A stretch of DNA of 64,000 nucleotides from Parvicellaceae bacterium (GCA_965267315.1 OZ253949.1:806781-870780); one strand, 5' to 3'; positions 9,529-47,754 are shown, counted from the first letter of the stretch. The notes: generated by a model not told the origin, from the sequence alone. Translations and numbers: made by a program.

Positions 9529-9539
9529 AAATTAAACCA

Positions 9540-20020: not shown

Positions 20021-20571
20021 GCGTTAAGCCGAATGGTCACTTCCAATAAGAAGAATTTTTTAGTCGCATCTACATCCTGAAAAGTATAACCCATATTCCC
20101 TTCGCTGTTAAGGGCTATCTGAAGCATTCCCAACCCAGCACCACCTTTGTCGGAAAGCTCTCCTTCCACCAGTTGTTTTTGATAGGCTTCTTTCAGTTGC
20201 TCCTGGGTTTTATTCTTTAACGGTTTAATGCGCGACTCCAGCTCTTCGATAGCTTCGGTTCTTACCATGTTCCCACTGTGAATAATAATCGAATCACCCA
20301 CACGAGAAACGTTTACAATTCCGAAGCGGTCTCCCGATTCAACGTCTTCCGTGGTGTGGCGGGTAATGTTCTCAATACATTCAACAAAACTCGAGTACAC
20401 TTTCTTAAAAATGATTCGTTCCATCTTGTCGGAGTCCAGGTTTTCCTTTAGCGTATTAATCAGGTGGTTTGAAATCTTAAAGGAGATATTTCCGAAATAG
20501 CACATCAGAATCTCATGATCCTTAAGGTCTTCGAACAGAGAGTAGACATATTTAGGTGAAATCCGGGTCAT
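20017..20571 (-). CDS. SiaB-like small protein kinase / anti-sigma-type ATPase-like protein
   Basis: 184 aa. ATGA overlap with the PP2C gene. GGAGLGMLQIAL G-rich motif as in GHKL/anti-sigma kinases. Gene order kinase-PP2C-DUF1987 matches Sia-type modules. Confidence 0.5.
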   Translation of the reverse strand: MTRISPKYVYSLFEDLKDHEILMCYFGNISFKISNHLINTLKENLDSDKMERIIFKKVYSSFVECIENITRHTTEDVESGDRFGIVNVSRVGDSIIIHSGNMVRTEAIEELESRIKPLKNKTQEQLKEAYQKQLVEGELSDKGGAGLGMLQIALNSEGNMGYTFQDVDATKKFFLLEVTIRLNA

Positions 20572-21910: not shown

Positions 21911-24900
21911 TTAGTCTTTGTAATTATCTTCCTTCAACCGCTCCTTAATCTTTTCCAGGTGCATCATCTTTTTCTCCTGTCGCAGTTCAATGGCACTTTT
22001 AGTAAAGTACTTGTGCTGAGTCAGAAACTTCACCTGAATCTCATCCCAAAGACGATCTGAGTTGATTTTACCGTGTTCTCTTAACTCTCTCCGGAGCGTA
22101 TCGGCAATTTTAGGAAAGTCATCTCGCCCCAGATAATCAAGGTCGGCGTCGCAAATGATTTCCTCCAGGTGTGATTGTGGATTGTGCGGAATAATGGTTG
22201 CATAAATGAGCTTAAATACCTTCTCCACCTGCTCAGGGGTATAGCCATACTTGGGTAGTATTTCCGCTGCCATGCGCGCCCCTATCGGTTCGTTGGCATC
22301 ATATTGCTCCACGAAGCCTGCATCATGATAGGTCGCCGCAGATTTTAAAACGAAAATGTCTTCATCCAGTACGCCCTCCATAATAGCAAGTCGCTCTGCC
22401 GCTTCTACGACATCATAGGTATGATGGATACCGTGATAATAAAGCTTCGGAGATAACTTCTGCTTTAGAATACGCATAATGTGTCGCTCCGCTTTCTGAT
22501 AGTTGATCGAACTATAGACGTGTAGGTTCACGTAGTCCCAGAACCTGCGGTTTGGCGTTACTCCATCTCCATCCTCAGACAGGTGTGGTTTAATCCCGTC
22601 CACAAAATACATATCGATATGGCCTTTGTTTTTCGCAGGGATTTTTCCTCGATAAGTACAGTCAAAATAGGGCTCAATGTATTCGAACGTCTTTCCGGAT
22701 ATATTCACCTTACCAACTTCACCACTTTGTTCCATTCTGGCCGCAATGTTTACTGAATTGCCCCAGATATCATAAGCAATTCGCTTGGTGCCAATTACAC
22801 CAGCAATTACCTCTCCTGTATGAATTCCAATCCTCAGATCCCAACCTTCCGCCGGTTTTCCGGCAGCAATTGCGTGTTGCTTGGATTTCCTTACATAATT
22901 TTGGATTTGCAGGCCTGCAATAACGGTGTTAATGGGGTTCTCCTTATCTCTCAGCGGAACCCCTCCAGCCGCCATGTAAGCATCTCCAATTGTTTTGATT
23001 TTCTCAATATGGTTGGATTCTACGATTTGATCAAACTCCTTGAAATAGTTGTCGAGAATTCTAACGAGCTCCTGCGGTCTGAAGTCTTCTGCATGACTGG
23101 TAAAGCTTTTAAAGTCCGTAAACATAACCGACACTCGCCGGTAATTTCTTGTCCGTGCTTTGCCTTTATTTTTAAGCTCTTCGGCTGTTTCTTCCGGCAA
23201 GATGTTTGCCAGAAGTTTATCGGCTTTTTCCTTTTCCATCTCCACCATATCTTTCTGGCGTTCGAGATGCTGTTTTTGCTCCTGTATTTTTTCTTTTTGC
23301 TCGGTTATTGTCCGGGTTCTTAATTCCACCAGCCTGGCAAGTGTTTCCTTTTGGTTCTTAATAGATCTTATCCTGATCCTCTGAACGGCTACTACTAAGG
23401 CTATGGCCAGCACAATGAGCAACCCTCTAAACCACCAAGTTTGCCAGAACGGAGGAGTGACGGTAATTTTTAGCGTTGCCGGAACTTCAGACCATTTACC
23501 ATCAGAATTGGAGCCATACACCTTAAAGGTGTAGGTTCCCGGAGAAAGGTGGTTGTAGTATGCCTCCCGCCTGTTGCCAACTTCATTAAACTTGGTTTCA
23601 TCCCCTTCCAGAATGTATTTGTATTGGTTTGCCTCGGAATTCGTGTAGTGCAGCGCCGCAAATTTGATGGTTAAATTGGTTTGCGTGTGATCGAGAACTA
23701 TTTCTTTGGCAAAGGACGGTGCCTGATTCAAAATTTCACCTTCACCCACCGCTAACGGCTGGTTAAACAACAATACATCTGTAATTGCCATTCTTGGTCG
23801 CCTTTGGTTTTCCTGGATATTCTTTGGATAAAATGCGTTAAACCCGTTTATCCCTCCAAAGAACAATTCTCCGTTTTTAGATCGGTAGTAAGCTCCGGTA
23901 TTGAACTCATTACTCTGCAACCCATCCGACGCGAGATAAGTGGTAAATGTTTCATTTACAATTTCCAGACGGCAAACTCCCAGGTTTGTGGTCATCCAGA
24001 GCGAACCGGGTTCTCCGCCCATCACTCCGTATACCGCGTTGTTTGAAAGACCGTCTTTCTCCGTATAGGCTTTAAATTTCTTAGTAACGGGGTCAAGCCG
24101 ATTCAATCCGCCCCCATAAGTTCCAACCCAGATGGCTCCTCCTGGTTCTTCCCAAATGGACAGAACTACATCTGAACTGATCGAATTAGGGTCAGAAGGG
24201 TTGTTTCGGAAGGTTCTAAAATTAAACTCCTCCATATCTCCCGGGCGAGTTATGGTTAATTTGCACAATCCGCCCTCAGTTGCAATCCAGTAATTTCTCT
24301 TGGAATCGATGACCAACGAACGACATATGTTGGTTGGCAACGTATTTGGATCGTCGATACTGTGTTCAAAAAACTTTGATTCGCCAGTTCTGGTGTTGTA
24401 CCGCCCCAGGCCTTCCCGGCAACAAATCCATATAAACTCACGATCACGGGTTAACTCATATACCCGATGATATAGTTTACCATCCGGCCGGAAAATTACC
24501 GGCTCGTACCATGCGGATTCGAAATCGGGTGATGTTTTAAGGCGGTAAAGACCATCAATTGTTCCCACCCAAATTTGTCCTCTTTCATCAAACTCAATTG
24601 CGTTGACACTATTATTTCCGGGCGCATCAGGATTGCTTCCCTGAAACTGGTAGTTGTTTACCTTAAAATTTTCTCTGTCTATTCGGGCAACTCCTTCACG
24701 TGTACCCACCCAGATGATTCCGGCGCTATCTTTTCTGATCGTCCAGATATTTTCATCAATCAGCCCATTGTCTCCAAAATCTCCTTTTATGTGGTCGAAG
24801 GCTTGTTTAACGGGATCGAATTTGCTAACCCCCCCGTTGGTTCCAATCCAAATAGAGCCAGAGGCATCGGCAATCATGCTGAAAACAATAGGGTTGATCA

Positions 24901-25858
24901 GGCTCGTTCGGTCGAAGTCGTTGGCAGAAAAATTGGTGACATTAATTTTTCCGTTCCGAAAATTCACTTCATCCAGGCCTGCCCCTTCGTACCCACACCA
25001 CACCAGTCCGGAGGTGTCCGAAAAAACGACTTTCACGTTATCTCCAGACAGCCCGTCTTCTATTCCATAATTGGTGAAACTGCTACCATCAAACAGACTG
25101 ATACCTTTGTCTGTAGCAACCCATGTTCGGTTCTTGTGATCCTGGAAGATATCGTTAACGAAATCTCCCCCAATTGACTTCTCGTTTTGCTTGTCTGACC
25201 GGAAATTATTGAAGGTTTTGTGATTTTTCTGCAGGACATATAGTCCCTTGCCTTGTGATCCAACCAAAATGTCACCGCGCTCATTGATTCCGATCTTATT
25301 GATCGTTGAAGCTGAGATGCCATTTTCAGCATCGTATTCTGTGATTGTAGAGTCCGGCACATGAAACTTGATCAATCCTCCGTTCTCTGAACCAATCCAG
25401 AGGTTGTCATCTTTATCCATGGCCAAAGCCAAAATCTGCCCCTTTTCGATGATGTCGTGTCCCTGAAGCCGATGAAATTGTCTGGTTCTTGGGTTAAAAG
25501 AATTTACACCCCCGCTTTCAGTTCCAATCCAAAGCATCCCGTCCCTTCCCTGGATAATCGTTCGAATGAAACTATTGCTAAGAGAATTTGCGTTTTCCGG
25601 ATCGTGTTTGAAAACCTGAAAGGAATACCCATCAAATTTATTCAGCCCTTCTTGAGTGCCCAGCCAAATAAAACCCTGTGCATCCTCAAGCATGCAGTTT
25701 ACGGAACTTTGTGAAAGCCCCTCCTCAATAGAGTAGTTGTCGAAACGAATGCTGCGCATTTGCGCCATAGAGGCGCCAGCGATTAGTAACAATAAAGAAG
25801 ATATCAGGCGTTTCATGCGATCCTCGTCGAAAAGAAAAAGCCTCGATGCTAAAATCAA
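21911..25858 (-). CDS. Sensor adenylate cyclase: periplasmic two-component-regulator propeller + Y_Y_Y domain, TM, coiled coil, class III nucleotidyl cyclase, C-terminal HD-domain phosphohydrolase
   Basis: Signal peptide. Repeated Reg_prop-like beta-propeller blades (W.GT..GL). Y_Y_Y segment then TM (WFRGLLIVLAIALVVAV). Cyclase motifs MFTDFKSFT (metal Asp), KTIGDAYMAAGG (Lys plus Asp), YDIWGNSVNIAARME (adenine-specifying Asp, Asn, Arg). HD motifs HGIHHT...ATYHDAGF...DADLDYLGRDD. Confidence 0.85.
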   Translation of the reverse strand: MILASRLFLFDEDRMKRLISSLLLLIAGASMAQMRSIRFDNYSIEEGLSQSSVNCMLEDAQGFIWLGTQEGLNKFDGYSFQVFKHDPENANSLSNSFIRTIIQGRDGMLWIGTESGGVNSFNPRTRQFHRLQGHDIIEKGQILALAMDKDDNLWIGSENGGLIKFHVPDSTITEYDAENGISASTINKIGINERGDILVGSQGKGLYVLQKNHKTFNNFRSDKQNEKSIGGDFVNDIFQDHKNRTWVATDKGISLFDGSSFTNYGIEDGLSGDNVKVVFSDTSGLVWCGYEGAGLDEVNFRNGKINVTNFSANDFDRTSLINPIVFSMIADASGSIWIGTNGGVSKFDPVKQAFDHIKGDFGDNGLIDENIWTIRKDSAGIIWVGTREGVARIDRENFKVNNYQFQGSNPDAPGNNSVNAIEFDERGQIWVGTIDGLYRLKTSPDFESAWYEPVIFRPDGKLYHRVYELTRDREFIWICCREGLGRYNTRTGESKFFEHSIDDPNTLPTNICRSLVIDSKRNYWIATEGGLCKLTITRPGDMEEFNFRTFRNNPSDPNSISSDVVLSIWEEPGGAIWVGTYGGGLNRLDPVTKKFKAYTEKDGLSNNAVYGVMGGEPGSLWMTTNLGVCRLEIVNETFTTYLASDGLQSNEFNTGAYYRSKNGELFFGGINGFNAFYPKNIQENQRRPRMAITDVLLFNQPLAVGEGEILNQAPSFAKEIVLDHTQTNLTIKFAALHYTNSEANQYKYILEGDETKFNEVGNRREAYYNHLSPGTYTFKVYGSNSDGKWSEVPATLKITVTPPFWQTWWFRGLLIVLAIALVVAVQRIRIRSIKNQKETLARLVELRTRTITEQKEKIQEQKQHLERQKDMVEMEKEKADKLLANILPEETAEELKNKGKARTRNYRRVSVMFTDFKSFTSHAEDFRPQELVRILDNYFKEFDQIVESNHIEKIKTIGDAYMAAGGVPLRDKENPINTVIAGLQIQNYVRKSKQHAIAAGKPAEGWDLRIGIHTGEVIAGVIGTKRIAYDIWGNSVNIAARMEQSGEVGKVNISGKTFEYIEPYFDCTYRGKIPAKNKGHIDMYFVDGIKPHLSEDGDGVTPNRRFWDYVNLHVYSSINYQKAERHIMRILKQKLSPKLYYHGIHHTYDVVEAAERLAIMEGVLDEDIFVLKSAATYHDAGFVEQYDANEPIGARMAAEILPKYGYTPEQVEKVFKLIYATIIPHNPQSHLEEIICDADLDYLGRDDFPKIADTLRRELREHGKINSDRLWDEIQVKFLTQHKYFTKSAIELRQEKKMMHLEKIKERLKEDNYKD

Positions 25859-25974
25859 GGCTTTAATTCAATTGAAAGATATAGAAATTTTATTCACCTC
25901 GAATGGTTTGCCAATCTTCGCCATGGTCAGGCCCGTTGTTGATTTTCATTTTAACTTCGTAACAAGTATCAGGA

Positions 25975-26841
25975 ATGCACTTCATTTCAATTATACGGCC
26001 ACGGCACTGGGTGAAGAATCTCTTCGTGTTGATGCCGCTTTTTTTTGCGGGAGAATTCCTGAATCCACTCGCCTTTCAAAACGCAATTCTGGCAGCATTT
26101 GGTTTTTGCCTGGTCGCCAGCTCCATTTATGTGATCAACGATTTAAGGGACGCGGAAGTGGATCGGCTACACCCAACAAAGTCGCTACGCCCGATTGCCT
26201 CAGGTAAAATAAACTCAACTACGGCTATTATTCTGGCTTTAGGATTAGTATTGGCGGGAACCGGCGTAGGCTTCTTCGTAAACGTATGTGTGGTAGGTGG
26301 CTTTCTCGCCTATTTTGTCATGAATGTGGCTTACTCCTTCTATCTAAAGAATATTGCGATTGTAGATGTAGTAATTATTGCCTCTGGCTTCGTTATCAGA
26401 ATATTTGTAGGTGGGTTTGCCTGCGACATTCCTATTTCCAAATGGCTGGCTTTAATGGTGTTTTTGGTGAGTTTGTTTATGGGCTTTGCAAAGCGAAGAG
26501 ACGATGTTTTACTGTTACAAAAAACCGGTGTAGAGGCGCGCAAGAATATAGCGCAATACAGTCTCAAGTTCATCGACATTTCCATGGGAATGATCGGCGC
26601 TGTAGTAATGGTTTGTTATGTTATGTACACTATTTCCGATGATCTAAAATCTCGAATTGACTTCGATTATACTTATGGAACATCCATCTTTCTTTTGATT
26701 GGTTTATTGAAGTATTTGCATAGGGTAATAGTTCAGGAGAAAACTGGTGCTCCGGTAAAAGTATTGTTTAGCGACCTGGTGATCTTAACGTCGCTGGTTC
26801 TGTGGGTTTTTGTGTTCTTTCTATTACTCTATCTACACTAA
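25975..26841 (+). CDS. UbiA-family polyprenyl-phosphate phosphoribosyltransferase (decaprenyl-phosphate 5-phosphoribosyltransferase, Rv3806c-like)
   Basis: NDLRDAEVDRLHPTKSLRPIASG motif with 8-9 TM helices. ATG start at 25975. Stop overlaps the next start (TAATG). Confidence 0.75.
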   Translation: MHFISIIRPRHWVKNLFVLMPLFFAGEFLNPLAFQNAILAAFGFCLVASSIYVINDLRDAEVDRLHPTKSLRPIASGKINSTTAIILALGLVLAGTGVGFFVNVCVVGGFLAYFVMNVAYSFYLKNIAIVDVVIIASGFVIRIFVGGFACDIPISKWLALMVFLVSLFMGFAKRRDDVLLLQKTGVEARKNIAQYSLKFIDISMGMIGAVVMVCYVMYTISDDLKSRIDFDYTYGTSIFLLIGLLKYLHRVIVQEKTGAPVKVLFSDLVILTSLVLWVFVFFLLLYLH

Positions 26842-28913
26842 TGGAAAAAACGATCAGCAACTGGGGAAACTACCCGAAACAAAGGGTAAACGAGTGGAAT
26901 CCTTCCTCCGAAAGAACCTTGCTTGAGGCGATCAACAAATCAGGGAATATCATCGCTCGCGGATTGGGTCGATCATACGGAGATGCCTCTTTGGGAAAAA
27001 CGGTTCTGTCTACCGTTCACTTGAATCGCATTCTTGAGTTTAACTCTGGTTCAGGTGTTCTGATTGCCGAATGTGGGGTTAGTCTGGAACAGATCATTGA
27101 AGAAATACTGCCCAAAGGGTGGTTTCTTCCGGTAACGCCTGGAACCAAGTATGTAACCATGGGTGGTGCCATTGCCGCTGATATACACGGTAAAAACCAC
27201 CATGTTGAAGGCTGCTTTTCACGGTACATCCAGTGGTTCGACATCATTATTGAATCCGGTGAAACTCTTCGTTGTTCCGACTCCGAAAACACAGATCTTT
27301 TCCATGCCACATTCGGCGGGATGGGCCTTACCGGTGTTGTAATTCGAGCCGCTCTCAGATGCAAGAAGGTGGAAACCTCGTATATCTACCAAACTATTCA
27401 GCCGTGTTATGATTTAAAAGAGCTATTAGAAAAAATAGACCAATCTATCAGTTCTACTTACTCCGTTGCGTGGATTGATTGTTTCACCAAAAACGGGGTG
27501 GGTAAGGGAATTCTCATTACAGGAGAGCATGCCACAACCAGTCAGTTACCGGCAAATAACCAGAAGCTTAGCGTAGATCATCCGCAAAAGCGGTCGGTTC
27601 CATTTTTCTTTCCCTCATGGGCACTTAGCAAGTTGTCTATAAAAGTGTTTAACCAACTCTACTTTAGAAAACAAAGGCGTAATTCAGGAACGAGTGTAGT
27701 GAACTACAATGCCTTTTTCTATCCACTGGATGCTATCAAAAACTGGAATAGAATATACGGTCGAAATGGGTTTATTCAGTATCAGATGGTAATACCTACG
27801 GAATATGCTCACGAAGGTTTAACAAGACTCTTGTCAGTAATTAAGGAAAAAGGCTATGGTTCGTTTTTAAGTGTTCTAAAATTATTCGGGGCCGAAAACA
27901 AACTACTTTCCTTTCCTTCTTCTGGTTATACATTGGCATTGGATTTTCCGGCCAAAAAAGAGGTTTTTGATCTGGTGCATGAACTTGACGAAATCGTTTG
28001 TAGTTATGGTGGAAGGATTTACCTTGCAAAGGATGCCACTACAACGGCAGTGGACTTTAAAAAAATGTACTCGGATCAAACCGTGCAATTCACCGCCATC
28101 CGAAAAACCCATAATCCAACCGGGAAGTTCAGGTCTTCCCAATCAGATAGGGTGCAATTAACTACTGATGAAAAACTCTCAGAACCATCTATGAATCAAC
28201 CGAAGTCAATTCTCGTTCTTGGAGCAACGTCGGATATTGCCCGGGCAATTGCCAAAGAATATGGTAAACAGGGATACCAACTGTATCTCGCGGCCAGAAC
28301 TCCCGCCGCAATTACTAAATCCGAGTGGCCTGCCGACAGCTCTGTTCAAGAATTCAATGCCCTTGATTTTGGCTCGCATGCAGATTTCGTGCACAATCTC
28401 GGAATCGTTCCTGACATTGCTCTAATTGCTTTTGGGTACCTGGGAGACCAAAAGGAAGCGGAGGTAAATTTCGATGAAGCAAAGTTGATTCTCGACACCA
28501 ATTTTACCGGAGCGGTTTCCATTTGTGAGGCACTGGCAGATGCAATGAAGAATGTAGGAAAGGGCTCCATTATAGGAATTAGTTCTGTGGCTGGTGATCG
28601 TGGTAAAAAGTCCAACTATATGTACGGCGCCGCCAAATCGGGTTTTACCGAGTTCCTTTCGGGGCTGAGGCATCGTTTACATGGCTCCGGTGTGCATGTG
28701 CTCACCGTAAAACCGGGTTTCGTAAAAACCAGAATGACTGAAGGAATGGATTTGCCTCCCAGGCTAACCGCCAGCGTGGAGCAGGTCGCTAAAGCAGTAG
28801 TTAAAGCAGAGCGGAAACACAAGAACGTGCTTTATGTTAAGGCAATATGGCGACCAATTATGTTCATTATCCGCTGTTTACCACACAGCATCTTCAAAAA
28901 ATCAGATTTATAG
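26841..28913 (+). CDS. Fused DprE1-like FAD-dependent oxidase (N-terminal) and DprE2-like short-chain dehydrogenase (C-terminal)
   Basis: N-terminal GLGRSYGDASLG FAD/PCMH-type oxidase domain of ~450 aa. C-terminal SDR ILVLGATSDIARAIAKEYG (cf. DprE2 LLLGGTSEIGLAI) with S...YMYGAAK catalytic Tyr/Lys. I prefer ATG 26841 over the track's GTG 26802. Confidence 0.8.
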   Translation: MEKTISNWGNYPKQRVNEWNPSSERTLLEAINKSGNIIARGLGRSYGDASLGKTVLSTVHLNRILEFNSGSGVLIAECGVSLEQIIEEILPKGWFLPVTPGTKYVTMGGAIAADIHGKNHHVEGCFSRYIQWFDIIIESGETLRCSDSENTDLFHATFGGMGLTGVVIRAALRCKKVETSYIYQTIQPCYDLKELLEKIDQSISSTYSVAWIDCFTKNGVGKGILITGEHATTSQLPANNQKLSVDHPQKRSVPFFFPSWALSKLSIKVFNQLYFRKQRRNSGTSVVNYNAFFYPLDAIKNWNRIYGRNGFIQYQMVIPTEYAHEGLTRLLSVIKEKGYGSFLSVLKLFGAENKLLSFPSSGYTLALDFPAKKEVFDLVHELDEIVCSYGGRIYLAKDATTTAVDFKKMYSDQTVQFTAIRKTHNPTGKFRSSQSDRVQLTTDEKLSEPSMNQPKSILVLGATSDIARAIAKEYGKQGYQLYLAARTPAAITKSEWPADSSVQEFNALDFGSHADFVHNLGIVPDIALIAFGYLGDQKEAEVNFDEAKLILDTNFTGAVSICEALADAMKNVGKGSIIGISSVAGDRGKKSNYMYGAAKSGFTEFLSGLRHRLHGSGVHVLTVKPGFVKTRMTEGMDLPPRLTASVEQVAKAVVKAERKHKNVLYVKAIWRPIMFIIRCLPHSIFKKSDL

Positions 28914-29501
28914 ATGAACCTGGCACTGTTCGATTTTGATGGTACAATTACCAGAAAGGACAGCTTCGCCAGCTTCCTGCGGTTTCTAAAGGGAGACCTT
29001 GCGTTTGCGTGGTATCTTTTTTTGAGCGCTCCCCATCTGTTAGGTTGGAAATTAAGCATGGTTTCGGCGAAAAGAGCAAAGGAAAGACTGTTTCAGTTCT
29101 ATTTTAAAGATGTTTCCATACTTGAAATGCAGAAATGCTGTGAGGATTATCTCCCCCATCTGGAGAAACTTGTAAATCCAATGGCGGCAGAAAGGTTAAA
29201 ATGGCATCAGGACCGGGGCGACCGGGTAGTTATAGTAAGCGCCTCGTGCGAGGAATGGCTCGAATTGTGGTGTGAAAAAATGGATGTAGAACTGATCGCG
29301 ACAAAGCTAGAGAGATCGGCTAAAGAGAACGTTTACACAGGAAAAATATCTGGTGCAAACTGTAACGGACAGGAAAAAGTAAACCGCATCCGCCAGTTGC
29401 TGAAACCCGATCAATACAAGCAGGTTTTTGCCTACGGAAATAGTAAAGGCGATCTGCCCATGTTAGAACTAGCCACCGAAAAACATTACCGATACTTCTA
29501 G
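28914..29501 (+). CDS. HAD-superfamily (HAD-IB) phosphatase
   Basis: DFDGT motif I at the N-terminus (LALFDFDGTITRKDSF). C-terminal GNSKGDLPM motif IV. Start abuts the previous stop. Confidence 0.75.
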   Translation: MNLALFDFDGTITRKDSFASFLRFLKGDLAFAWYLFLSAPHLLGWKLSMVSAKRAKERLFQFYFKDVSILEMQKCCEDYLPHLEKLVNPMAAERLKWHQDRGDRVVIVSASCEEWLELWCEKMDVELIATKLERSAKENVYTGKISGANCNGQEKVNRIRQLLKPDQYKQVFAYGNSKGDLPMLELATEKHYRYF

Positions 29502-31187
29502 ATGCTTGAGCGATTGAAAAATATTCCAGAGCGTAAAGTGCTTCTACTATTTTGTATTAGCTGGTTCAGCTTAAACTTATTACAGGCGATATACTCCACT
29601 CTCGCCCATGATGAAGCATACTATTGGGTTTGGGCACAAAATCTGGATTGGGGCTTCTACGAACATCCTCCGATGGTCGCCATGTTTATCAAAATAGGCT
29701 CCACGCTATTAGGAGGGGAAGTAGGTGTAAGACTACTTACGGTAATCACCTCTTCTCTTATTATCTACTGGACTTACGTCCATCTGGTAAGGCGTGGGGT
29801 GTGGTTATACATTGTGTTGGTGATTTCCGTTCTGATGGCACATGCTGGAGGGGTACTAACTGCGCCTGATACCCCGCTTGCCTTTTTTACCTGTTTGTTC
29901 TACATTTTCTTCAAAAAGTACCTCGATTCTGATCGCTGGAAAGTGTGGCTTCCTCTAACCCTGATTGTCGCCGCGATGATGTACAGCAAGTATCACGGCA
30001 TTCTTATTATCGGCTTTTGTTTCCTGCTTAACTTCAAACTTCTAAAGCGGCCCAGTTTTTGGGTTATTACCATGGGGTCGCTGCTGATCTATTCTCCTCA
30101 TTTATTTTGGTTGTTTTCGTTTGGTAAAGGCGGGCTAACCTACGCTCTTAACGACCGCTTTCAGGAACATCTGGAACTTCGACATTTTACTGAGTACCTC
30201 TTAGGGCAAATTCTAAGTTTCGGACCTTTCATTGGCATAATTTTATTATTTGCAGCCCTCTTTGGAAAGGTGCAGGACGCTTTCGAGAAAACCTTGCGTA
30301 GATTGGTAATCCTCGTTCTTGCGTTCTTTCTGATTTGGTGTTTTCGAGGACATATTAACGCCAACTGGACTGCCCCGTTGTTTATTCCAATCCTGATATT
30401 GTCACATCGTTACATCCTGAAGAGGCAGAAGTTGAAAAAAGTAGTGTTTGGGCTCGCCATCCCCAGTGTTTTAATCATACTGCTAGTCCGCGCCCATTTG
30501 GTGTTTGACTTTATTCCATTGTCGCGACATGATAATCGGGACAATGAATTTGTAGACTGGACCGAGTATGCCGGGGAGGTTGATGCCTTAGCCAAAGACG
30601 CCCCTGTACTGGTTGGAAGTTACCAAACCGCATCCAAGCTTTGGTTTTATCGACAGAAACAAACTCTCCCTATTAATGACGGCGATCGCAAGCAACAGTT
30701 CTATGTTTGGGATCATTTATATAAGCCTCTAGCCGATCAGCGAGTATTGATTATCGACAAAGAAATTCCGAGTCCAGATGGGCAAATTGATGAAGTTGGA
30801 GACACCATGAACTACGTTTTTGTAAATGGTTTTACCAGCTACCGAACTGTGGAAATGGAATTGGTGGATTCGGCTCCTGTTGTAGCCTCACCTGGTTCTA
30901 AGGTTGATTTAACGGTTTTGGTCAGGGCTCCAAAGAATGGATGCATTCAGCCAGAAGGTACAGTTTCACACCCTGGGGGAGTGTTTTATACCGTTTATGG
31001 TGATGGGATTCGGGTGGGTGGGTCCTTATGCCATATATTTCACGACGAAGTTTGCGATAGCACTACTATTCCTGTGCAAATTCAAGCTCCTGATCGACCG
31101 GGAATTTATTCTTTCAGCCTTCGAATGAGTACACATCAGGCATTGCTTTGGTGGTCGCCGCTGCAATATGATCTGGTTGTGGAATAG
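29502..31187 (+). CDS. GT-C fold glycosyltransferase (ArnT/PMT, GT83/GT39-like) with a ~200-aa C-terminal extracytoplasmic domain
   Basis: 11 or more TM helices. First-loop AHDEAYYWVWAQ (DE..Y motif of polyprenyl-P-sugar-using GT-C enzymes). Translationally coupled to the upstream gene. Confidence 0.75.
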   Translation: MLERLKNIPERKVLLLFCISWFSLNLLQAIYSTLAHDEAYYWVWAQNLDWGFYEHPPMVAMFIKIGSTLLGGEVGVRLLTVITSSLIIYWTYVHLVRRGVWLYIVLVISVLMAHAGGVLTAPDTPLAFFTCLFYIFFKKYLDSDRWKVWLPLTLIVAAMMYSKYHGILIIGFCFLLNFKLLKRPSFWVITMGSLLIYSPHLFWLFSFGKGGLTYALNDRFQEHLELRHFTEYLLGQILSFGPFIGIILLFAALFGKVQDAFEKTLRRLVILVLAFFLIWCFRGHINANWTAPLFIPILILSHRYILKRQKLKKVVFGLAIPSVLIILLVRAHLVFDFIPLSRHDNRDNEFVDWTEYAGEVDALAKDAPVLVGSYQTASKLWFYRQKQTLPINDGDRKQQFYVWDHLYKPLADQRVLIIDKEIPSPDGQIDEVGDTMNYVFVNGFTSYRTVEMELVDSAPVVASPGSKVDLTVLVRAPKNGCIQPEGTVSHPGGVFYTVYGDGIRVGGSLCHIFHDEVCDSTTIPVQIQAPDRPGIYSFSLRMSTHQALLWWSPLQYDLVVE

Positions 31188-31277: not shown

Positions 31278-32747
31278 TTACTCTTCTACCTCTTTGGCAT
31301 CCTCAGTATCATCTGCCTTCTTACCCTTCAGGTAACCAGGTAATTCCATCCCCGCCATGTTAAACATGTCCTCAAGTGGTGGAACAGATTTGTATAATCC
31401 TGACAGGAAATTAGCGGTTGAGGTCTTTCCTCCGTTTTGAGTAGAGTTACCTCCGTCCCATACAGTAACCTTGTCAATCTTAATGTTCTTGATTGCTTCC
31501 GCCTGTGTTTTAACAAGTTCCGGAAGTTTGTCGGCCACAAGCAATAATACGGCATCCTTTGAATTATTCCCGGCCGCCTGAACGATTCTGTCCAGACCTT
31601 CTGCTTGCTTGGTAAGAATTTCGTACAAACCTTGCGCTTCAGCCTGCCGTTTGAATAGAATTGCATCTGCCTCACCTTTGGCAATCCGGCGAATATTTTC
31701 CGCCTCAGCTTCTGCATCAATCTCTATTTTCTGCTTGTCAATTTCCGCAGGCACAACAATATCAGCATACTGTGATGCCTTGTCTCTTTCAGCTCTGGCC
31801 TTTTCTGCGGCTTGCTCCGCAGAATAAGATTCCTCAAGTGCTCTTGCCGACTGAACTTTCTCTGCTGCAATTGCGAGCTTTTCAGCCTCCGCTTCTCTTA
31901 CTCTACGTTCAGCGTCGGAATTCGCGATTGTTACCTTGGCAACGTTCTCACCTTCTACGGCTCGAGAGTTCGCCTCGGCAACTTTTACTCTTTGGTCCTG
32001 TACGGCAATTGCCTCACCAATAGATCCATCTCTGTTCTTTTCCGCTACCGACTTTCTGGCTTCGTTGATGGCGTGAGCAGCGGCCTCTTTACCAAGCGCC
32101 TCAATGTATCCGGATTCATCTTTAATGTCGGTAATATTCACGTTGATCAATTTCAGTCCGATCTTCTTGAGTTCGGCCTCAACGTTTGAAGAAACGTTGG
32201 CCAGAAACTTATCTCTGTTCGAGTTGATCTCCTCAATATCCATGGTTGCAATTACCAAACGCAGCTGCCCGAATATGATTTCTTTAGCAGTTGACTTAAT
32301 GACTTCCTGCGCCATGCCCAGTAGCCGCTCCGCGGCGTTGTTCATTATGCTTGGTTCAGTAGAAATACCTACGGTAAAGCTGGAAGGAACATCTACCCGA
32401 ATGTTTTGTTTAGAAAGTGCGTTTTTTAGTTCGACCTCTATAGACATTGGCGTAAGATCCAGGTACTCATAGTCCTGAAACACGGGCCATATAAATGCGG
32501 CACCACCATGGATACATTTCGATGAGCGACTGCCCTCTGTGGTGGAGCCTACTTTACCATAGACCACCAGTACTTTGTCTGAAGGACACCTACGGTACCT
32601 CCTCAAATAAGTAATAAGAATTAAGACCAGTACGAAGGCAATAGCACCTACCAAAAATAATTTACTCTGGCCCATGCCTAGTATCTCATCCGCACCGTCT
32701 GCTTGTAATAATAGTTGTTTCATTTCACGATTGTTTTGCGTTTCCAT
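31278..32747 (-). CDS. Flotillin-family SPFH/band-7 protein (FloT/YuaG-like)
   Basis: N-terminal TM, SPFH domain, then long EA-rich coiled-coil flotillin repeats (AEAEKLAIAAEKVQSARALEE...). Confidence 0.85.
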   Translation of the reverse strand: METQNNREMKQLLLQADGADEILGMGQSKLFLVGAIAFVLVLILITYLRRYRRCPSDKVLVVYGKVGSTTEGSRSSKCIHGGAAFIWPVFQDYEYLDLTPMSIEVELKNALSKQNIRVDVPSSFTVGISTEPSIMNNAAERLLGMAQEVIKSTAKEIIFGQLRLVIATMDIEEINSNRDKFLANVSSNVEAELKKIGLKLINVNITDIKDESGYIEALGKEAAAHAINEARKSVAEKNRDGSIGEAIAVQDQRVKVAEANSRAVEGENVAKVTIANSDAERRVREAEAEKLAIAAEKVQSARALEESYSAEQAAEKARAERDKASQYADIVVPAEIDKQKIEIDAEAEAENIRRIAKGEADAILFKRQAEAQGLYEILTKQAEGLDRIVQAAGNNSKDAVLLLVADKLPELVKTQAEAIKNIKIDKVTVWDGGNSTQNGGKTSTANFLSGLYKSVPPLEDMFNMAGMELPGYLKGKKADDTEDAKEVEE

Positions 32748-33510: not shown

Positions 33511-35451
33511 TTAGACTCTTACTCCTATTACGAGAATGTCGTCAATTTGTTCGTAATTTCCACGCCAATTTTCAATTTTTTCGTTCAGAATATTTCCTTG
33601 TTCACGCATGGGCAATTCTCGGATTTCCATTAGTAACTCTCTAAACTGCCTATACATGAATTTTTTACCTTTCATCCCACCGAACTGATCAGCGTATCCG
33701 TCTGAAAAAATATAAATTAAATCACCCTTTTTTACTTCGATTTTGTGATTTGTATATTGTTTTTCGCCATGAGCGAAGCTTCCTATTGCAAATTTATCGG
33801 CCTTGGTCTGCGTTAATTTATCTCCTCTAACATGGTATAGTGGGTTGTTCGCTCCGGCATATTCCATTGCATCAAAGTTCTTTGTAAACGAGATCAATGC
33901 GAGATCCATTCCGTCCCGAACCTTAGAGTTCCCCTCCGATTTGTTCAATGACTCCGCTGTGAGCCTGTTAAGGTCAGTTAAAATGTCGGCTGGCGTATTC
34001 AGCTTATTTCCCTGCACGGCAATATTCAATGCATTGGATCCAACCAAAGACATAAACGCACCGGGCACTCCATGCCCGGTACAGTCTACCGCAGCAATGT
34101 GAATTTTGTCGGTCGTTTCCTCCATCCAGTAGAAGTCACCGGAAACAATATCTTTCGGTTTAAACAAGACAAAAGACTCCGGAATTAACTTTGCAATCTT
34201 ATTATCTGGCGGCAGAATGGAATCTTGTAGCCGCTTTGCGTATTTAATCGAATCGGTTACGTCCTTATACAGCTCCTCTATTCGCATTTTCTGTTGCTCC
34301 AGCTCCCCCTTCTGTCGAACAACTTCCTCGGTTCGCTCAATTACTTTCTGCTCCAGAATACGTTCATTTTCAGCCAGGTCATCGCGCATCTTCATCAACG
34401 CATGCCCAAGAGTATCTTCATCAGATAATGGCTGGTACTCATAGTCGAAGTTGCTCTGGCCGACCTGCCTTGCAAATTCTGTCGTGTGATTTAAACCTCT
34501 TACCAGTTTATTCATGGCTACCGACATGTCGCCAATTTCATCGTTGCTTGGTTTTATTTCCCGTTCAGGGATAATTCCCTTTCCAAGCTTGATAAGCATT
34601 CCCTTTAGTTCTTTTACCGGCCTAACTATGGACCGGGTGGTAAGCATAGTAACTACTACAATGATTCCCACTACCGCCAGAATACAGTAGAATATGATAT
34701 TGATTACGTTCGCCAGATCCGTTTCACTCTGCTCAAAAGCATTGGTCATGTCAGAACTTCGTCGCTCGTTATCTTCCCGCACCATTGTAATGAAGTTGGT
34801 AAGATCGGTGCTAACCTTTCGCGCTCTGGACCTTAATTCTCCATCAGGTGCAATCAGAAAAGTACCCTGAATGTTATTAAATACACTATCATAGCTGGCC
34901 AAATTGGGAAACAACTCCTTTATTTCCTGATACTTGTCAAACAATGTATCAATGTCCCTGAAGATGCGCTCTAGCGTGTCGCTGGCGTTTATGACTAAAG
35001 ATCTATTCTCTGCATTCAAATTCGAATTGCCTACGGAATCTTTCGAAACAGCGGCTGCGGCCACCTGATCAATAATCCGTAAACTATCAATGTTAGACAT
35101 TAGGCTTCTTTCGAGAACTTTAGGAATAATGGTGTCACATATTTTTTGAAGTCTTCGTTTGTCTGGGTGTTCCGGGTAACTAGGAACGGTTGCCCAACGA
35201 ACAATGAGGTTCTCAGATTCCTCTATATTCTCTTTAAGGCGAATTAAATCTTGTAAGGAAGGGTCTGAATACAAGCTAATGTAGCTATACTCCTCAATAC
35301 CGTCGGTTAAAGTAGATGAAGTTGAATTAGCTGTCGAATAGGTAATCGCAAATACAGACAGGACGATGGCTAGAATTATACCAAATCCCAGGATGATTTT
35401 TATGGCTATGTTAAACCTCACTGCTCTTTGCCTAGTTGGGCTTTTCCCCAA
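33511..35451 (-). CDS. Membrane sensor PP2C/SpoIIE-type phosphatase with extracytoplasmic domain and HAMP domain (SiaA-like, orphan)
   Basis: TM1, ~230-aa extracytoplasmic region, TM2, HAMP (IVRPVKELKGMLIKLGKGII), coiled coil. PP2C motifs VDCTGHGVPGAFMS...DGMDLALISF...IYIFSDGYADQ. Confidence 0.8.
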   Translation of the reverse strand: MGKSPTRQRAVRFNIAIKIILGFGIILAIVLSVFAITYSTANSTSSTLTDGIEEYSYISLYSDPSLQDLIRLKENIEESENLIVRWATVPSYPEHPDKRRLQKICDTIIPKVLERSLMSNIDSLRIIDQVAAAAVSKDSVGNSNLNAENRSLVINASDTLERIFRDIDTLFDKYQEIKELFPNLASYDSVFNNIQGTFLIAPDGELRSRARKVSTDLTNFITMVREDNERRSSDMTNAFEQSETDLANVINIIFYCILAVVGIIVVVTMLTTRSIVRPVKELKGMLIKLGKGIIPEREIKPSNDEIGDMSVAMNKLVRGLNHTTEFARQVGQSNFDYEYQPLSDEDTLGHALMKMRDDLAENERILEQKVIERTEEVVRQKGELEQQKMRIEELYKDVTDSIKYAKRLQDSILPPDNKIAKLIPESFVLFKPKDIVSGDFYWMEETTDKIHIAAVDCTGHGVPGAFMSLVGSNALNIAVQGNKLNTPADILTDLNRLTAESLNKSEGNSKVRDGMDLALISFTKNFDAMEYAGANNPLYHVRGDKLTQTKADKFAIGSFAHGEKQYTNHKIEVKKGDLIYIFSDGYADQFGGMKGKKFMYRQFRELLMEIRELPMREQGNILNEKIENWRGNYEQIDDILVIGVRV

Positions 35452-38629: not shown

Positions 38630-40291
38630 ATGAAAAAGTTATACAGTTTAATCGTGTTCGCTCTACTTGCCGGGTCACTCAGTGCACAGTGTACTGCGAA
38701 TATATTGCTTCAGGACTCTGCGGGCTATATCTATGGCTTCAACATGTCTACAGGTGCATCATCATACGACTGGTGGGTATCTGATCCTGTCGGAAGCGGC
38801 ACCAACTACACAACCACAGATATTGTTCACGGGCCTGTTGCTGCGGGAACCTATACAGTATGTTTGTTCGCATATGATGCAGGGGGGGCGTTTTGTGACT
38901 CTACGTGCTCAACCATTACGGTAGGGGGTAGCGGCGGCGGAGCAAGTTGCAATGCTAATTTCAGTTCCAGTGCGTCCGGATTAACCGCTAGTTTCACAGA
39001 CGCATCGTCCGGATCTGCCTTTGGCTCATATTCTTACTATTGGGACTTTGGTGATGGAAATACATCGACTGTTCAAAACCCTGCTCACACTTATGGCGCA
39101 GCAGGAACATATACCGTATGTCTCACTTTTACGGATGCCTCTGTTCCTTGCACCGACACGTATTGTGCGGTGGTGACCGTTTCTTCCGGATCTGGTTCCG
39201 GTGGAGGGTCTTGTTCTATGGATTTCTCTCTGTACGATTCAGCAGGCACTATCTACGGCTTTAATAACTCTACAGGCGCTGCGGCTACTGAGTGGTATGT
39301 TTGGGGCCCCTCTGGCAGTATGAGCACTTATACTAGTTGGGATATGACTCACACAACCGGAACTTCCGGAACTTACTGGGTATGCCTTTACGGATATGAT
39401 TCTTCCGGAGCATGGTGTGATTCCACCTGTCAAACCATTAGCATTACTACTGGTGGCGGTAGTGGAGGATCGGGTTGTGCGGCAGACTTTGTTTCGTGGC
39501 CAGACTCTTCAGGAGGACATTATTTCTATGAATTCTCCAGTGGAACAGGCCTAAGCTATTACTGGGACTTTGGAGACGGAAACAGTTCTACCCTGGCTAA
39601 CCCTTATCATGCCTATGCTTCCCCTGGAACCTATACGGTGTGCTTAACAGTTTGGAACTCTTCTTGCGCAGACACTTTGTGCCAAACAATTACAGTTTCT
39701 TCCGGTGGATCCTCAACTCCTTGTGATGCTGACTTTATCTGGTTCCCTGACTCGTCGTCAAATACGGTTTACTTGTGGAACCTAGGGTCTGGGCCATCAG
39801 GTCTAAGCTATTACTGGGATTTTGGCGATGGAAATACTTCTACATCGGCTTACCCAATGCATACATATGCTTCTAACGGCACTTACACTGTATGCTTAAC
39901 GGTAACAGGCACTACAGCGCTTGGCGGCACCTGCTCAGACACCTATTGTGATTCTATTTGGGTGCCTCTTAAAGCAAGTGGGTTCACAATTAATGTTGTG
40001 GCTCCCGGTGGTCCAACTGCAATTGAGGAGCGGCCAACTTTAACCAATGGTCTGGTGTTCCCTAACCCGGTTAATGAAGCCGCGCAAATCAAGTTTTCGT
40101 CTACCTACAGTGTTTCGGCTACAATTGCGGTAAGATCTGTAGATGGTCGTATTTGCTCCACGCAAACAGTTAACGTAAACGCTGGGGAAAACACTTTCCC
40201 ATTAAATACTGCTGAACTTTCTGGTGGATTGTATCTGGTAACTATTTCAAACGGCTCGTTGCTTGGTTCTTATAAGTTTTTGAAAGAATAA
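38630..40291 (+). CDS. T9SS-secreted protein with about four PKD domains and a Por C-terminal sorting domain
   Basis: Repeated YYWDFGDGNTS PKD signatures (4 times). C-terminus LVFPNPVNEAAQIKF...GGLYLVTISNGS matches the T9SS CTD. Confidence 0.8.
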   Translation: MKKLYSLIVFALLAGSLSAQCTANILLQDSAGYIYGFNMSTGASSYDWWVSDPVGSGTNYTTTDIVHGPVAAGTYTVCLFAYDAGGAFCDSTCSTITVGGSGGGASCNANFSSSASGLTASFTDASSGSAFGSYSYYWDFGDGNTSTVQNPAHTYGAAGTYTVCLTFTDASVPCTDTYCAVVTVSSGSGSGGGSCSMDFSLYDSAGTIYGFNNSTGAAATEWYVWGPSGSMSTYTSWDMTHTTGTSGTYWVCLYGYDSSGAWCDSTCQTISITTGGGSGGSGCAADFVSWPDSSGGHYFYEFSSGTGLSYYWDFGDGNSSTLANPYHAYASPGTYTVCLTVWNSSCADTLCQTITVSSGGSSTPCDADFIWFPDSSSNTVYLWNLGSGPSGLSYYWDFGDGNTSTSAYPMHTYASNGTYTVCLTVTGTTALGGTCSDTYCDSIWVPLKASGFTINVVAPGGPTAIEERPTLTNGLVFPNPVNEAAQIKFSSTYSVSATIAVRSVDGRICSTQTVNVNAGENTFPLNTAELSGGLYLVTISNGSLLGSYKFLKE

Positions 40292-47750: not shown

Positions 47751-47754
47751 TTTT

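Follow-up and report, generated by a model that had tools for sequence, protein, structure and literature searches.

A four-gene operon of a Parvicellaceae bacterium that probably encodes a lipid-linked pentofuranose glycosylation pathway with a fused DprE1-DprE2 epimerase

D-arabinofuranose (D-Araf) glycans are familiar chiefly from mycobacteria, where they form the essential core of the cell wall and are a drug target. We analysed a window of 64,000 nucleotides from a Parvicellaceae bacterium (GCA_965267315.1 OZ253949.1:806781-870780), a member of the Bacteroidota, in which an initial annotation had proposed an operon of the kind that makes and uses a lipid-linked donor of this sugar. Are these genes a complete pathway, which sugar would it produce, and where would that sugar go? 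Four coupled genes, all with open reading frames at the coordinates claimed for them, occupy positions 25975-31187 of the plus strand (Table 1). They probably form a self-contained periplasmic pentofuranose glycosylation pathway acting on an envelope acceptor, and the sugar is most likely D-Araf.

Table 1. Coordinates of the operon and its parts, numbered from the first nucleotide of the window.
Feature	Position	Strand	Basis
Divergent intergenic region, 116 nt, upstream of the operon; presumed promoter region	25859..25974	.	Upstream minus-strand gene starts at 25858
UbiA-family polyprenyl-phosphate 5-phosphoribosyltransferase (PPPRS, Rv3806c-like), 288 aa	25975..26841	+	NCBIfam, PDB, motifs
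DprE1-like FAD oxidase domain, residues 1-440 of the 690-aa fusion	26841..28160	+	NCBIfam, PDB 4aut, residues
DprE2-like SDR reductase domain, residues 451-690 of the fusion	28191..28913	+	PDB 21gq_C, NCBIfam
HAD-IB phosphatase, 195 aa	28914..29501	+	TIGR01490, predicted fold, invariant residues
GT-C glycosyltransferase, residues 1-426: membrane domain and first periplasmic domains	29502..30779	+	
GT-C C-terminal beta-sandwich module, residues 427-561; possible carbohydrate-binding module	30780..31187	+	

The translational coupling claimed for every junction is confirmed by the junction sequences. The UbiA and fusion genes meet in TAATG, in which the stop codon and the next start codon share one nucleotide, and at both the fusion/HAD and the HAD/GT-C junctions TAG abuts ATG. 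The fusion reading frame (26841-28913) encodes 690 residues when counted from its ATG, with the mechanical reading frame beginning at a GTG at position 26802, and the GT-C reading frame (29502-31187) encodes 561. The fusion and HAD proteins as read here have exact matches in NCBI/ENA; the UbiA and GT-C sequences have no exact database match, and public annotation therefore uses other start codons for them. The genes on both flanks lie on the minus strand, divergent upstream and convergent downstream, and the four genes thus constitute a self-contained unit. Their G+C content is that of the remaining window, and their neighbours encode signalling proteins, a universal stress protein and flotillin. 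A protein with a T9SS C-terminal domain is also encoded within the window. A sigma-70 consensus scan of the operon region, with a consensus that does not cover Bacteroidota-type promoters, returned sites no more often than in shuffled sequence, and a terminator scan of the same region gave no enrichment over shuffles. An Rfam scan of the window returned a single tRNA, and neither a riboswitch nor a leader close to the operon.

The first protein matches the Pfam UbiA family (E = 2.4e-21), and its best family and PDB matches are decaprenyl-phosphate phosphoribosyltransferases. The NCBIfam model NF008977 for these enzymes scores 218 bits (E = 1.8e-64), just below its curated cutoff of 234, and residues 4-278 match Rv3806c (PDB code 8j8j, E = 3.5e-37). 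Models for heme-O, chlorophyll, ubiquinone and GGGP prenyltransferases reach 53 bits at best, a distance that upholds the Rv3806c-type identity first proposed and argues against a grouping with menaquinone or chlorophyll prenyltransferases. The signature quoted for this protein, NDLRD...HPTKSLRPIASG, is present: NDLRDAEVD at residues 55-63 forms the NDxxDxxxD motif of loop II, and loop IV carries KRxxD at 173-176. The counterparts of these residues were mutated in ORF15 of Citrobacter youngae (PMC11127046). Across all taxa, the synthase family comprises 1,948 clusters (50% identity) at E <= 1e-30.

The second protein combines a FAD_binding_4 domain (Pfam, 5e-19) and an adh_short domain (6.8e-27) in one chain, with roughly 10 linker residues between them. 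A search with the FAD domain returned the NCBIfam DprE1 model NF053785 (415 bits, E = 4.9e-124; cutoff 500) and the DprE1 structure 4aut (E = 8.6e-87), whereas sugar-lactone oxidases scored only 57 bits. The SDR domain matches DprE2 over its full length, including the C-terminal helix (PDB 21gq_C, E = 2.1e-38; next SDR, 1e-15). It exceeds the cutoff of 267 for NCBIfam PRK07102 with 298 bits and stays under that of 250 for the DprE2 model NF053786 with 207 bits (E = 4.1e-61). Residues Y46, H116, K118, Q315 and K397 correspond to Y60, H132, K134, Q336 and K418 of Mycobacterium tuberculosis (Mtb) DprE1, and these five catalytic-site residues are kept in 119-120 of 120 homologues. The fused state occurs in 113 of the 120 best epimerase homologues; in all 113, the full DprE1 catalytic set and the SDR tetrad N554, S582, Y595 and K599 are invariant. 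The proposed fusion is therefore real, with its catalytic residues intact, and is not closer to unrelated oxidoreductases lacking the DprE1 residues; both quoted motifs, GLGRSYGDASLG and VLGATSDIARAIAKEYG, are present, as is the Y..GAAK site, in the form YGAAK (Y595 to K599). The initial annotation had also pointed to the cysteine targeted by covalent inhibitors of DprE1, and this residue, unlike the catalytic ones, is not conserved: A366 aligns with Mtb C387, and none of the 120 homologues has Cys at this position. Cys387 is not known to be required for catalysis, since natural Ala/Ser variants exist in some mycobacteria. Given its constant absence, natural insensitivity to covalent benzothiazinones is predicted. 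The translated fusion has no N-terminal hydrophobic signal sequence.

The third protein is a HAD-IB phosphatase (Pfam HAD, 4.7e-37; TIGR01490, 133 bits, cutoff 98.3). Its predicted model (pLDDT 94) has the HAD C1-cap fold, with 3fvv as the best PDB match (TM 0.83). Motifs I-IV are intact, D7, D9, S111, K155 and D180 are invariant, and the DFDGT motif noted earlier spans D7-T11; the NF006088 model gave no match at E <= 0.01. The role suggested for this protein is that of the polyprenyl-phospho-5-phosphoribose 5-phosphatase (PRP). HAD adjoins UbiA in every locus checked via HAD homologues, and it accompanies UbiA in an Ignavibacteriales locus that lacks an epimerase (L023). HAD and UbiA are naturally fused in P0476, which is homologous to both proteins of the window; its N-terminal domain matches the HAD protein with E = 8e-33. 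This natural fusion links phosphatase and synthase and, together with the conserved gene order, supports the proposal that HAD replaces the PAP2 phosphatase; the operon has no PAP2 gene. The replacement is not new, as biochemical work on C. youngae ORF15 had already shown a HAD enzyme at this step (PMC11127046).

The fourth protein matches Pfam PMT_2 (1e-13), and its homologues are named GT39/ArnT family in the source databases; a sequence search returned no PDB match and no NCBIfam family match. The DE..Y loop motif is present as HDEAYYW, with D37 and E38 conserved. A confident predicted model has the GT-C fold, with ArnT as the closest bacterial solved structure. At a sequence identity of 13-14%, this likeness holds at the level of the fold only. 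Fold comparison places the model nearer to ArnT, ALG12 and PMTs than to AftB, AftD, AftA and EmbA, and its C-terminal beta-sandwich resembles glycan-binding modules.

The gene-neighbourhood survey revealed that the gene order is conserved in relatives. UbiA-DprE1-DprE2-HAD occurs in this order in 9 of 14 loci, from Chryseobacterium, Kaistella, Epilithonimonas and uncultured Flavobacteriales/Bacteroidetes assemblies. Three loci (L020, L024, L025) have the exact gene order of the window, with separate genes for DprE1 and DprE2, and include a GT-C orthologue of 40-47% identity; in two others (L015, L001) the GT-C is placed first and the linkage is kept. All four GT-C orthologues with at least 40% identity whose contigs were checked lie within or beside the cluster; three of these loci were read (L020, L024, L025), and the fourth orthologue, P0130, is apparently on the same contig as the fused homologue P0006, to judge by the identical length (20,921 bp) of the two contigs. 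This conserved order supports a tie between the GT-C and the pathway. Some relatives' loci adjoin Wzy or GT4 genes (L016, L023), and one relative encodes a GtrA-UbiA fusion (P0411).

From the homologies, the conserved catalytic residues, the GT-C fold and the gene linkage, we infer the chemistry, carrier, sugar, topology and acceptor as follows. The UbiA synthase would start the pathway on a carrier that is presumably undecaprenyl-P, and the HAD-IB phosphatase would take off the 5-phosphate, giving polyprenyl-P-ribofuranose. Within the single-chain epimerase, the FAD domain would oxidise C2 and the NAD(P)H-dependent SDR domain would reduce the 2-keto intermediate to polyprenyl-P-D-Araf. A flippase would carry the lipid-linked sugar to the periplasmic face, where an envelope acceptor would receive Araf from the ArnT/PMT-like GT-C, whose beta-sandwich may bind a glycan acceptor. 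The four-gene operon lacks a gene for a flippase of GtrA, SMR or MATE-like type, and none could be recognised elsewhere in the window; three small multi-spanning membrane reading frames at 47325-48511 have no GtrA, SMR or MATE Pfam match.

The proposal of a lipid-linked D-Araf-like donor pathway with a periplasmic transferase is supported because the best matches of each protein, by wide margins, are the cognate enzymes of the decaprenyl-phospho-arabinose (DPA) pathway, with catalytic residues conserved, and because the genes stay linked in relatives and the C. youngae and P. aeruginosa systems set an experimental precedent. Several points count against it, among them the missing flippase gene and, as set out below, GT-C homologues in loci without the pathway and donor genes without a GT-C beside them. 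All three mycobacterial equivalog models stay under their curated cutoffs, and by these thresholds the UbiA, DprE1 and DprE2 proteins of the window classify as homologues, not equivalogs. The literature searched offered neither biochemical nor glycan-composition evidence from this organism or any Bacteroidota relative; in line with the initial annotation, no description of such a system in Bacteroidota was found there.

Even with polyprenyl-P-Araf as the donor, the GT-C might be an ArnT-like modifier of lipid A or the LPS core and not a glycosyltransferase for polysaccharide side chains or proteins. We regard this as unlikely: a PagL neighbour turned up in a single locus, ArnT lacks a C-terminal module like the one that here resembles glycan-binding modules, and D-Araf-modified lipid A was not found in the literature searched. 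The GT-C could also be functionally separate, using another polyprenyl-P sugar while transferases encoded elsewhere consume the Araf donor. Homologues of 33-34% identity do occur in loci without the pathway (L021, L026), many relatives, for example Chryseobacterium, have the UbiA-DprE1-DprE2-HAD donor genes with no adjoining PMT_2 GT-C, and in three loci (L016, L019, L022) the donor genes lie beside large multi-spanning membrane proteins, without BLAST or Pfam similarity to the GT-C of the window or to one another, that we guess to be alternative GT-Cs. However, the abutting HAD stop and GT-C start codons, the position of all four checked orthologues within or beside the cluster and a linkage that survives differing gene order (L015, L001) make such a separation improbable.

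As to the sugar, the fusion might act on a different substrate or yield a different product, so that ribofuranose or another derivative is transferred, which we hold to be very unlikely. In DprE1/DprE2 chemistry, reduction of the 2-keto-erythro-pentofuranose leads to ribose or arabinose only, which counts against this possibility, as does the invariance of both catalytic sets in the 113 fused homologues. An Ignavibacteriales locus (L023) does represent a related epimerase-free system, UbiA-HAD-PMT_2, Riemerella loci have UbiA and DprE1 alone adjacent, with neither DprE2 nor HAD in the locus, and the unreached DprE1 and DprE2 equivalog cutoffs point the same way. The C. youngae GT-C takes both Ribf and Xylf donors, but in the same published survey DprE1/E2 homologues go with Araf glycans (PMC11127046). 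Finally, the operon could be read as a cluster for a prenylated small molecule, with an aromatic prenyltransferase and tailoring oxidoreductases, a reading that draws on work on aromatic prenyltransferases of the UbiA family in marine Flavobacteria (Ubi-297/EboC, PMC9235831). Ubi-297/EboC, however, falls into a different UbiA group and belongs to the ebo cluster, the EboC model gives the UbiA protein of the window 26 bits against 218 from the phosphoribosyltransferase model, and the partner genes are DprE1, DprE2, HAD and GT-C homologues rather than ebo genes. These family scores effectively refute the small-molecule reading, to which we assign hardly any probability.

Taking the D-Araf pathway as the preferred reading, the operon and its many relatives suggest that the whole phylum probably makes a lipid-linked Araf donor. 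A more far-reaching idea, which we put forward as a tentative possibility, is that Bacteroidota widely place D-Araf on an envelope component (lipid A/LPS core, an O-glycoprotein or T9SS cargo glycan, or a surface polysaccharide) by means of a single-chain cytoplasmic DprE1-DprE2 and an ArnT-like transferase of an Araf-specific GT family, either a new one or an extended existing one. If this is true, the fusion, which bears on the side of the membrane where DprE1 works, would be independent evolutionary evidence that DprE1 and DprE2 cooperate on the cytoplasmic face. Bacteroidota Araf glycans could then also be natural substrates of the D-arabinan-degrading enzymes that occur in gut Bacteroidetes (PMC10115798). 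With its epimerase in one chain, the compact four-gene unit might in addition serve as a glycoengineering cassette.

Kelly et al. (PNAS 2024, PMC11127046) have already published the general class of such pathways and described it in outline: a UbiA synthase works with a phosphoribose phosphatase of the HAD family, a flippase and a GT-C, and DprE1/E2 join as add-on epimerases where Araf is made, their homologues accompanying Araf-containing glycans. In C. youngae, ORF15, which consists of a HAD PRP domain and a PPPRS domain, makes polyprenyl-P-Ribf, from which a GT-C with a C-terminal CBM transfers Ribf (PMC11127046). Since this logic was published in 2024, the value of the present operon lies in its extension and in the search for the acceptor, not in a new principle. 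The C. youngae O1/O2 genes ORF15-ORF14-ORF12 share with the window an NDxxDxxxD UbiA-type PPPRS, a HAD-family phosphatase and a GT-C with a C-terminal beta-rich module. They differ in that HAD is fused to the synthase in ORF15 and separate here, in the MATE flippase ORF14, which has no counterpart in the operon, and in their setting, as the operon lies outside any O-antigen or polysaccharide locus. A DprE1-DprE2 fusion is unmentioned in that study, and Bacteroidota and Flavobacteria are absent from it and its supplement (PMC11127046). ORF12 was described as being without similarity to existing GT families (PMC11127046) and is GT136, whereas the GT-C of the window apparently belongs to another CAZy family; the contrast is argued from the PMT_2 match and the GT39/ArnT names.

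The closest bacterial structure, ArnT (GT83), transfers L-Ara4N from undecaprenyl-P to lipid A, while the pathway predicted here would supply a furanose derived from PRPP; ArnT also lacks the extra beta-sandwich, and no arn genes occur among the operon neighbours examined. With the mycobacterial DPA pathway, the operon shares homologous synthase, oxidase and reductase and the logic that leads from PRPP over lipid-P-ribose and lipid-P-arabinose to a GT-C. The mycobacterial phosphatase, however, is the PAP2 protein Rv3807c, DprE1 (Rv3790) and DprE2 (Rv3791) are separate and Cys387 is in place of the Ala found here, the carrier is decaprenyl, and the transferases are of Emb/Aft type, unlike the ArnT-like GT-C. 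Pseudomonas aeruginosa Pa5196/PA7 (PsPA7_6245-6249 and TfpW) offers a Gram-negative parallel with Rv3806c, DprE1 and DprE2 homologues and a GT-C. It has an Rv3807c-type phosphatase homologue and a GtrA-like protein where the window has HAD and no GtrA gene, and its biosynthesis genes are unlinked to the transferase, which modifies pilin, whereas the genes of the window are contiguous. DprE1 of P. aeruginosa has been shown to be cytoplasmic (bioRxiv 10.1101/2020.04.19.049825), in agreement with a fusion that has no signal sequence and includes a reductase dependent on NAD(P)H. Distinctive in the present case are the host phylum, the DprE1-DprE2 fusion, the apparently non-GT136 GT-C and a setting with no flippase or polysaccharide cluster nearby; the operon is most likely a rearranged version of the pathway known from mycobacteria, Pseudomonas and Citrobacter.

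Four plus-strand open reading frames at 25975-31187, encoding a UbiA synthase, a DprE1-DprE2 fusion, a HAD phosphatase and a GT-C transferase, were confirmed, and the overlap or abutment claimed for every junction in the initial annotation proved exact: TAATG, with a 1-nt overlap, at the first, and TAG directly followed by ATG at the second and third. The operon is bounded by a 116-nt divergent spacer upstream and a 90-nt convergent spacer downstream, and because both neighbouring genes lie on the minus strand, the four genes form a self-contained unit. Their G+C content (0.43-0.45) is the same as that of the remainder of the window. Two observations assign the window to Bacteroidota: the T9SS-sorted PKD-domain protein at 38630-40291, and the taxon names borne by homologues. 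The first-start forms of UbiA (25975) and GT-C (29502) are absent from the public protein collection, in which the fusion and the HAD protein are present; the deposited GT-C has 549 residues, as expected if translation began at a GTG in codon 13. Alignments of homologues favour the longer form of both proteins.

Features of the operon and its surroundings (window coordinates)
Feature	Position	Strand	Remarks
UbiA ORF	25975-26841	+	288 aa
DprE1-DprE2 fusion ORF	26841-28913	+	690 aa from ATG; mechanical ORF start is the upstream GTG 26802
HAD ORF	28914-29501	+	195 aa
GT-C ORF	29502-31187	+	561 aa
Reg_prop/Y_Y_Y sensor with nucleotide cyclase and HD domain	21911-25858	-	1314 aa; upstream neighbour
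SPFH/flotillin protein	31278-32747	-	downstream neighbour
Large SpoIIE/PP2C phosphatases, one with TPR repeats, the other with a HAMP domain	18104-20571 and 33511-35451	-	flank region
Protein with PKD domains and T9SS C-terminal sorting domain	38630-40291		points to Bacteroidota
Three tandem small ORFs	47325-48511	-	141, 133 and 128 aa; 3-4 predicted membrane spans each

The upstream neighbour, whose gene lies directly divergent from the operon, has an unusual sensor-cyclase-HD architecture: beta-propeller repeats of the Reg_prop type, a Y_Y_Y domain, the catalytic domain of an adenylate/guanylate cyclase and, at the C-terminus, an HD domain. In the related locus L015 the cluster is followed by a Y_Y_Y/SpoIIE sensor. 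The SpoIIE/PP2C genes, together with a 184-aa ORF overlapping the start of the one at 18104-20571, look like partner-switching signalling modules. The three small membrane ORFs have no significant Pfam match, and their relation to the operon, 16 kb away, is not obvious.

A five-step D-arabinofuranose (D-Araf) pathway is the best-supported reading of the operon. What the analysis shows directly is the homology of the proteins, their conserved residues, the fold and the linkage of the genes; the chemical steps, carrier, sugar, topology and acceptor are all inferred. The lipid-linked pentofuranose (D-Araf-like) glycosylation proposed in the initial annotation is supported. UbiA would join PRPP and polyprenyl-P to form polyprenyl-P-5-phosphoribose, the HAD enzyme would remove the 5-phosphate, and the DprE1 and DprE2 domains would oxidise and then reduce C2 to yield polyprenyl-P-D-Araf. 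This donor would be flipped to the periplasmic face, no flippase gene being present in the operon, and the GT-C enzyme would transfer the sugar in the periplasm.

Among NCBIfam models, the synthase scores highest with those of decaprenyl-phosphate phosphoribosyltransferase, of which three give 218, 197 and 160 bits, and with the generic UbiA-family model NF006088 at 169 bits; other named functions (GGGP, heme O, chlorophyll, ubiquinone, EboC) reach 53 bits or less, and the top score lies just below the curated equivalog cutoff of 234. Rv3806c is the only solved structure matched (8j8j, E 3.5e-37, residues 4-278). The loop II (NDLRDAEVD, 55-63) and loop IV (KRRD, 173-176) motifs are intact, and they correspond to N247, D248, D251, D255, R366 and E369, the residues mutated in the C. 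youngae synthase ORF15 (PMC11127046).

The HAD protein scores 133 bits against TIGR01490 (cutoff 98.3), and its predicted model (pLDDT 94.1) has a HAD C1-cap fold whose best structural match is 3fvv (TM 0.83), followed by phosphoserine phosphatases. D7, D9, S111, K155 and D180 are invariant among homologues, the Asn of GNSKGD is a common family variant of Asp, and the family is kept at 42-49% identity across phyla. Both HAD homologues whose contigs were examined, one of them in the Ignavibacteriales locus L023, adjoin a UbiA gene. With the window UbiA as query, an exhaustive search cut at E <= 1e-30 yielded 1,948 representative clusters, and among its best 150 matches was P0476 (491 aa), a natural HAD-UbiA fusion in which residues 5-192 resemble the window HAD (E 8e-33) and 208-490 the window UbiA (E 4.5e-54). 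Another homologue, P0411, is a GtrA-UbiA fusion; through these fusions the synthase is tied both to the phosphatase step and to a protein of flippase type. P0390 joins a methyltransferase to UbiA, and P0446 carries a 190-aa C-terminal extension with no Pfam match.

Residues 8-440 of the epimerase fusion match the DprE1 model with 415 bits (E 4.9e-124, cutoff 500), compared with 57 bits for the sugar-lactone oxidase model, and the structures of M. smegmatis (E 8.6e-87) and M. tuberculosis DprE1 (E ~5e-83). In the structure-hit alignment, checked in sequence, Y46, H116, K118, Q315 and K397 equal the M. tuberculosis residues Y60, H132, K134, Q336 and K418, whereas T364 and A366 replace N385 and C387. 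These five catalytic-site residues are invariant in the best 120 database homologues, bar one gap at the Y60 position; at the Cys387 position the same homologues have Ala (112), Thr (3), Ser (3) or Gly (2), and never Cys. Residues 451-690 align over their full length with the solved DprE2 structure 21gq_C (E 2.1e-38; next SDR structure 1e-15), scoring above the cutoff for PRK07102 (298 against 267) and below it for the mycobacterial DprE2 equivalog (207 against 250). None of the 113 fused homologues departs from the SDR residues N554, S582, Y595 and K599. As 113 of the best 120 homologues are fused, fusion is the common form in this group. No signal-like hydrophobic stretch was found at the N-terminus.

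The GT-C protein matches Pfam PMT_2 (52 bits), with no match in NCBIfam and none at the sequence level in the PDB. Its AlphaFold2 model, built from a 47-sequence alignment, has a pLDDT of 92.1 and a pTM of 0.89. Foldseek returned ArnT first (5ezm, E 1.3e-7, TM 0.55/0.57), and comparison of the model with individual enzymes gave scores of 24.6 for ALG12, 23.4 for ArnT (399 residues aligned), 19.4 for Pmt4, 18.4 for Pmt2, 18.1 for STT3B, 15.6 for AftB, 14.2 for AftD, 13.9 for AftA and 9.7 for EmbA. An invariant D37-E38 pair follows the first transmembrane helix, in a loop predicted to be periplasmic from the K/R-rich N-terminus and the positive-inside rule.

Three kinds of acceptor can be considered. 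The ArnT-like fold hints at lipid A or core, as does a neighbour in the related locus L025, where the gene of a 398-aa PagL-domain protein of the lipid A 3-O-deacylase family (8720-9916; 33 bits, cutoff 23) follows that of the orthologous GT-C on its strand after 10 nt, an arrangement seen in this one locus only. A CBM-like C-terminal module of the GT-C hints at a glycan, and membership of PMT_2 and the precedent of TfpW would allow a protein.

A genome scan with the fusion protein as query returned 14 loci, all from Bacteroidota, in which tblastn placed UbiA directly upstream of DprE1 (13/14) and HAD directly downstream of DprE2 (9/14). The window's order recurs in L020, L024 and L025 (UbiA-DprE1-DprE2-HAD-PMT_2), with DprE1 and DprE2 unfused and a GT-C 40-47% identical; L015 has PMT_2-UbiA-fusion-HAD and L001 (Saprospiraceae) GT-C-UbiA-fusion. 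The donor genes (UbiA, DprE1/DprE2 and HAD) stand beside unrelated large multi-spanning proteins without Pfam match in L016/L017, L019 and L022, and in L021 and L026 more distant GT-C homologues (33-34% identity) occur without linkage to the pathway. The HAD of L019 (Flavobacteriales genome; 10100-11134, 344 aa) has a normal HAD domain, then a stretch predicted to span the membrane, and ~120 further residues at the C-terminus, and its gene is directly followed by that of a 571-aa multi-spanning protein without Pfam match. Chryseobacterium vrystaatense encodes DprE1 (439 aa) and DprE2 (241 aa) in two genes that abut, with OmpA-like, lipocalin-like and aminotransferase genes as neighbours and no adjacent GT-C. 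In the duck pathogen Riemerella anatipestifer (L008, L011, L012), UbiA adjoins a stand-alone DprE1 followed by GSCFA and TatD genes, and the loci, 16-17 kb long, contain no homologue of DprE2 or HAD; either the genome carries these partners at another site or the pathway has been cut short. In the metagenomic relatives L020 (13306-17335) and L022 (1-3192, 9770-16585) the cluster is flanked by an integrase and by several IS transposase genes, a sign that the cassette may be able to move, whereas the window operon has none of these beside it. An Ignavibacteriales metagenome contig (L023, 7010-10093) has a UbiA-HAD-PMT_2 trio without DprE1/E2. The trio lies in a polysaccharide cluster that also includes Wzy_C, FemAB, a polysaccharide deacetylase and several GT4 genes, and it likely represents the ribofuranose form of the system in a lineage other than Bacteroidota.

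The pathway class itself is already published, including the role of a HAD phosphatase and DprE1/E2, and the decisive comparison is with the work of Kelly, Duong, Nothof, Lowary and Whitfield (PNAS 2024, PMC11127046). Its text and supplement contain neither 'Bacteroid' nor 'Flavobacter', and the paper has neither 'fusion' nor 'fused'; the genera surveyed there are Citrobacter, Stenotrophomonas, Rathayibacter and Devosia. Our literature searches found nothing joining DprE1 and DprE2 with Bacteroidetes, nothing on a DprE1-DprE2 fusion protein in Gram-negatives, only that paper and its commentary on PPPRS, GT136, undP-Araf or polyprenyl phosphoribose, and, for D-arabinofuranose in Bacteroidetes, work on degradation and none on synthesis. 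What is new here is the phylum, the single-chain DprE1-DprE2, the stand-alone HAD, the absence of a flippase gene, the stand-alone genomic setting, and an ArnT/PMT_2-like GT-C that probably lies outside GT136. The more interesting outcome, which we consider rather unlikely, would be that the whole phylum modifies a novel acceptor with D-Araf and that this has escaped notice.

In C. youngae, ORF15 was biochemically shown to make polyprenyl-P-ribofuranose; its N-terminal domain is a phosphoribose phosphatase (PRP) of the HAD family, and its C-terminal domain a polyprenyl-phosphate phosphoribosyltransferase (PPPRS) of the UbiA family. With an SDR epimerase the sugar becomes xylofuranose, DprE1/E2 homologues occur in candidate systems for Araf-containing glycans, and the PPPRS of P. 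syringae also has a fused PRP domain (PMC11127046). ORF12, the GT-C that founded GT136, was shown to transfer sugar in the periplasm, and its C-terminal CBM binds the O-polysaccharide acceptor (PMC11127046). The window system differs in that its HAD is separate from the synthase and its GT-C is ArnT/PMT_2-like. The pilin system of P. aeruginosa has a GtrA-like protein, TfpW and a cytoplasmic DprE1 (bioRxiv 10.1101/2020.04.19.049825), and its phosphatase is of the Rv3807c type, whereas that of the window is a HAD enzyme.
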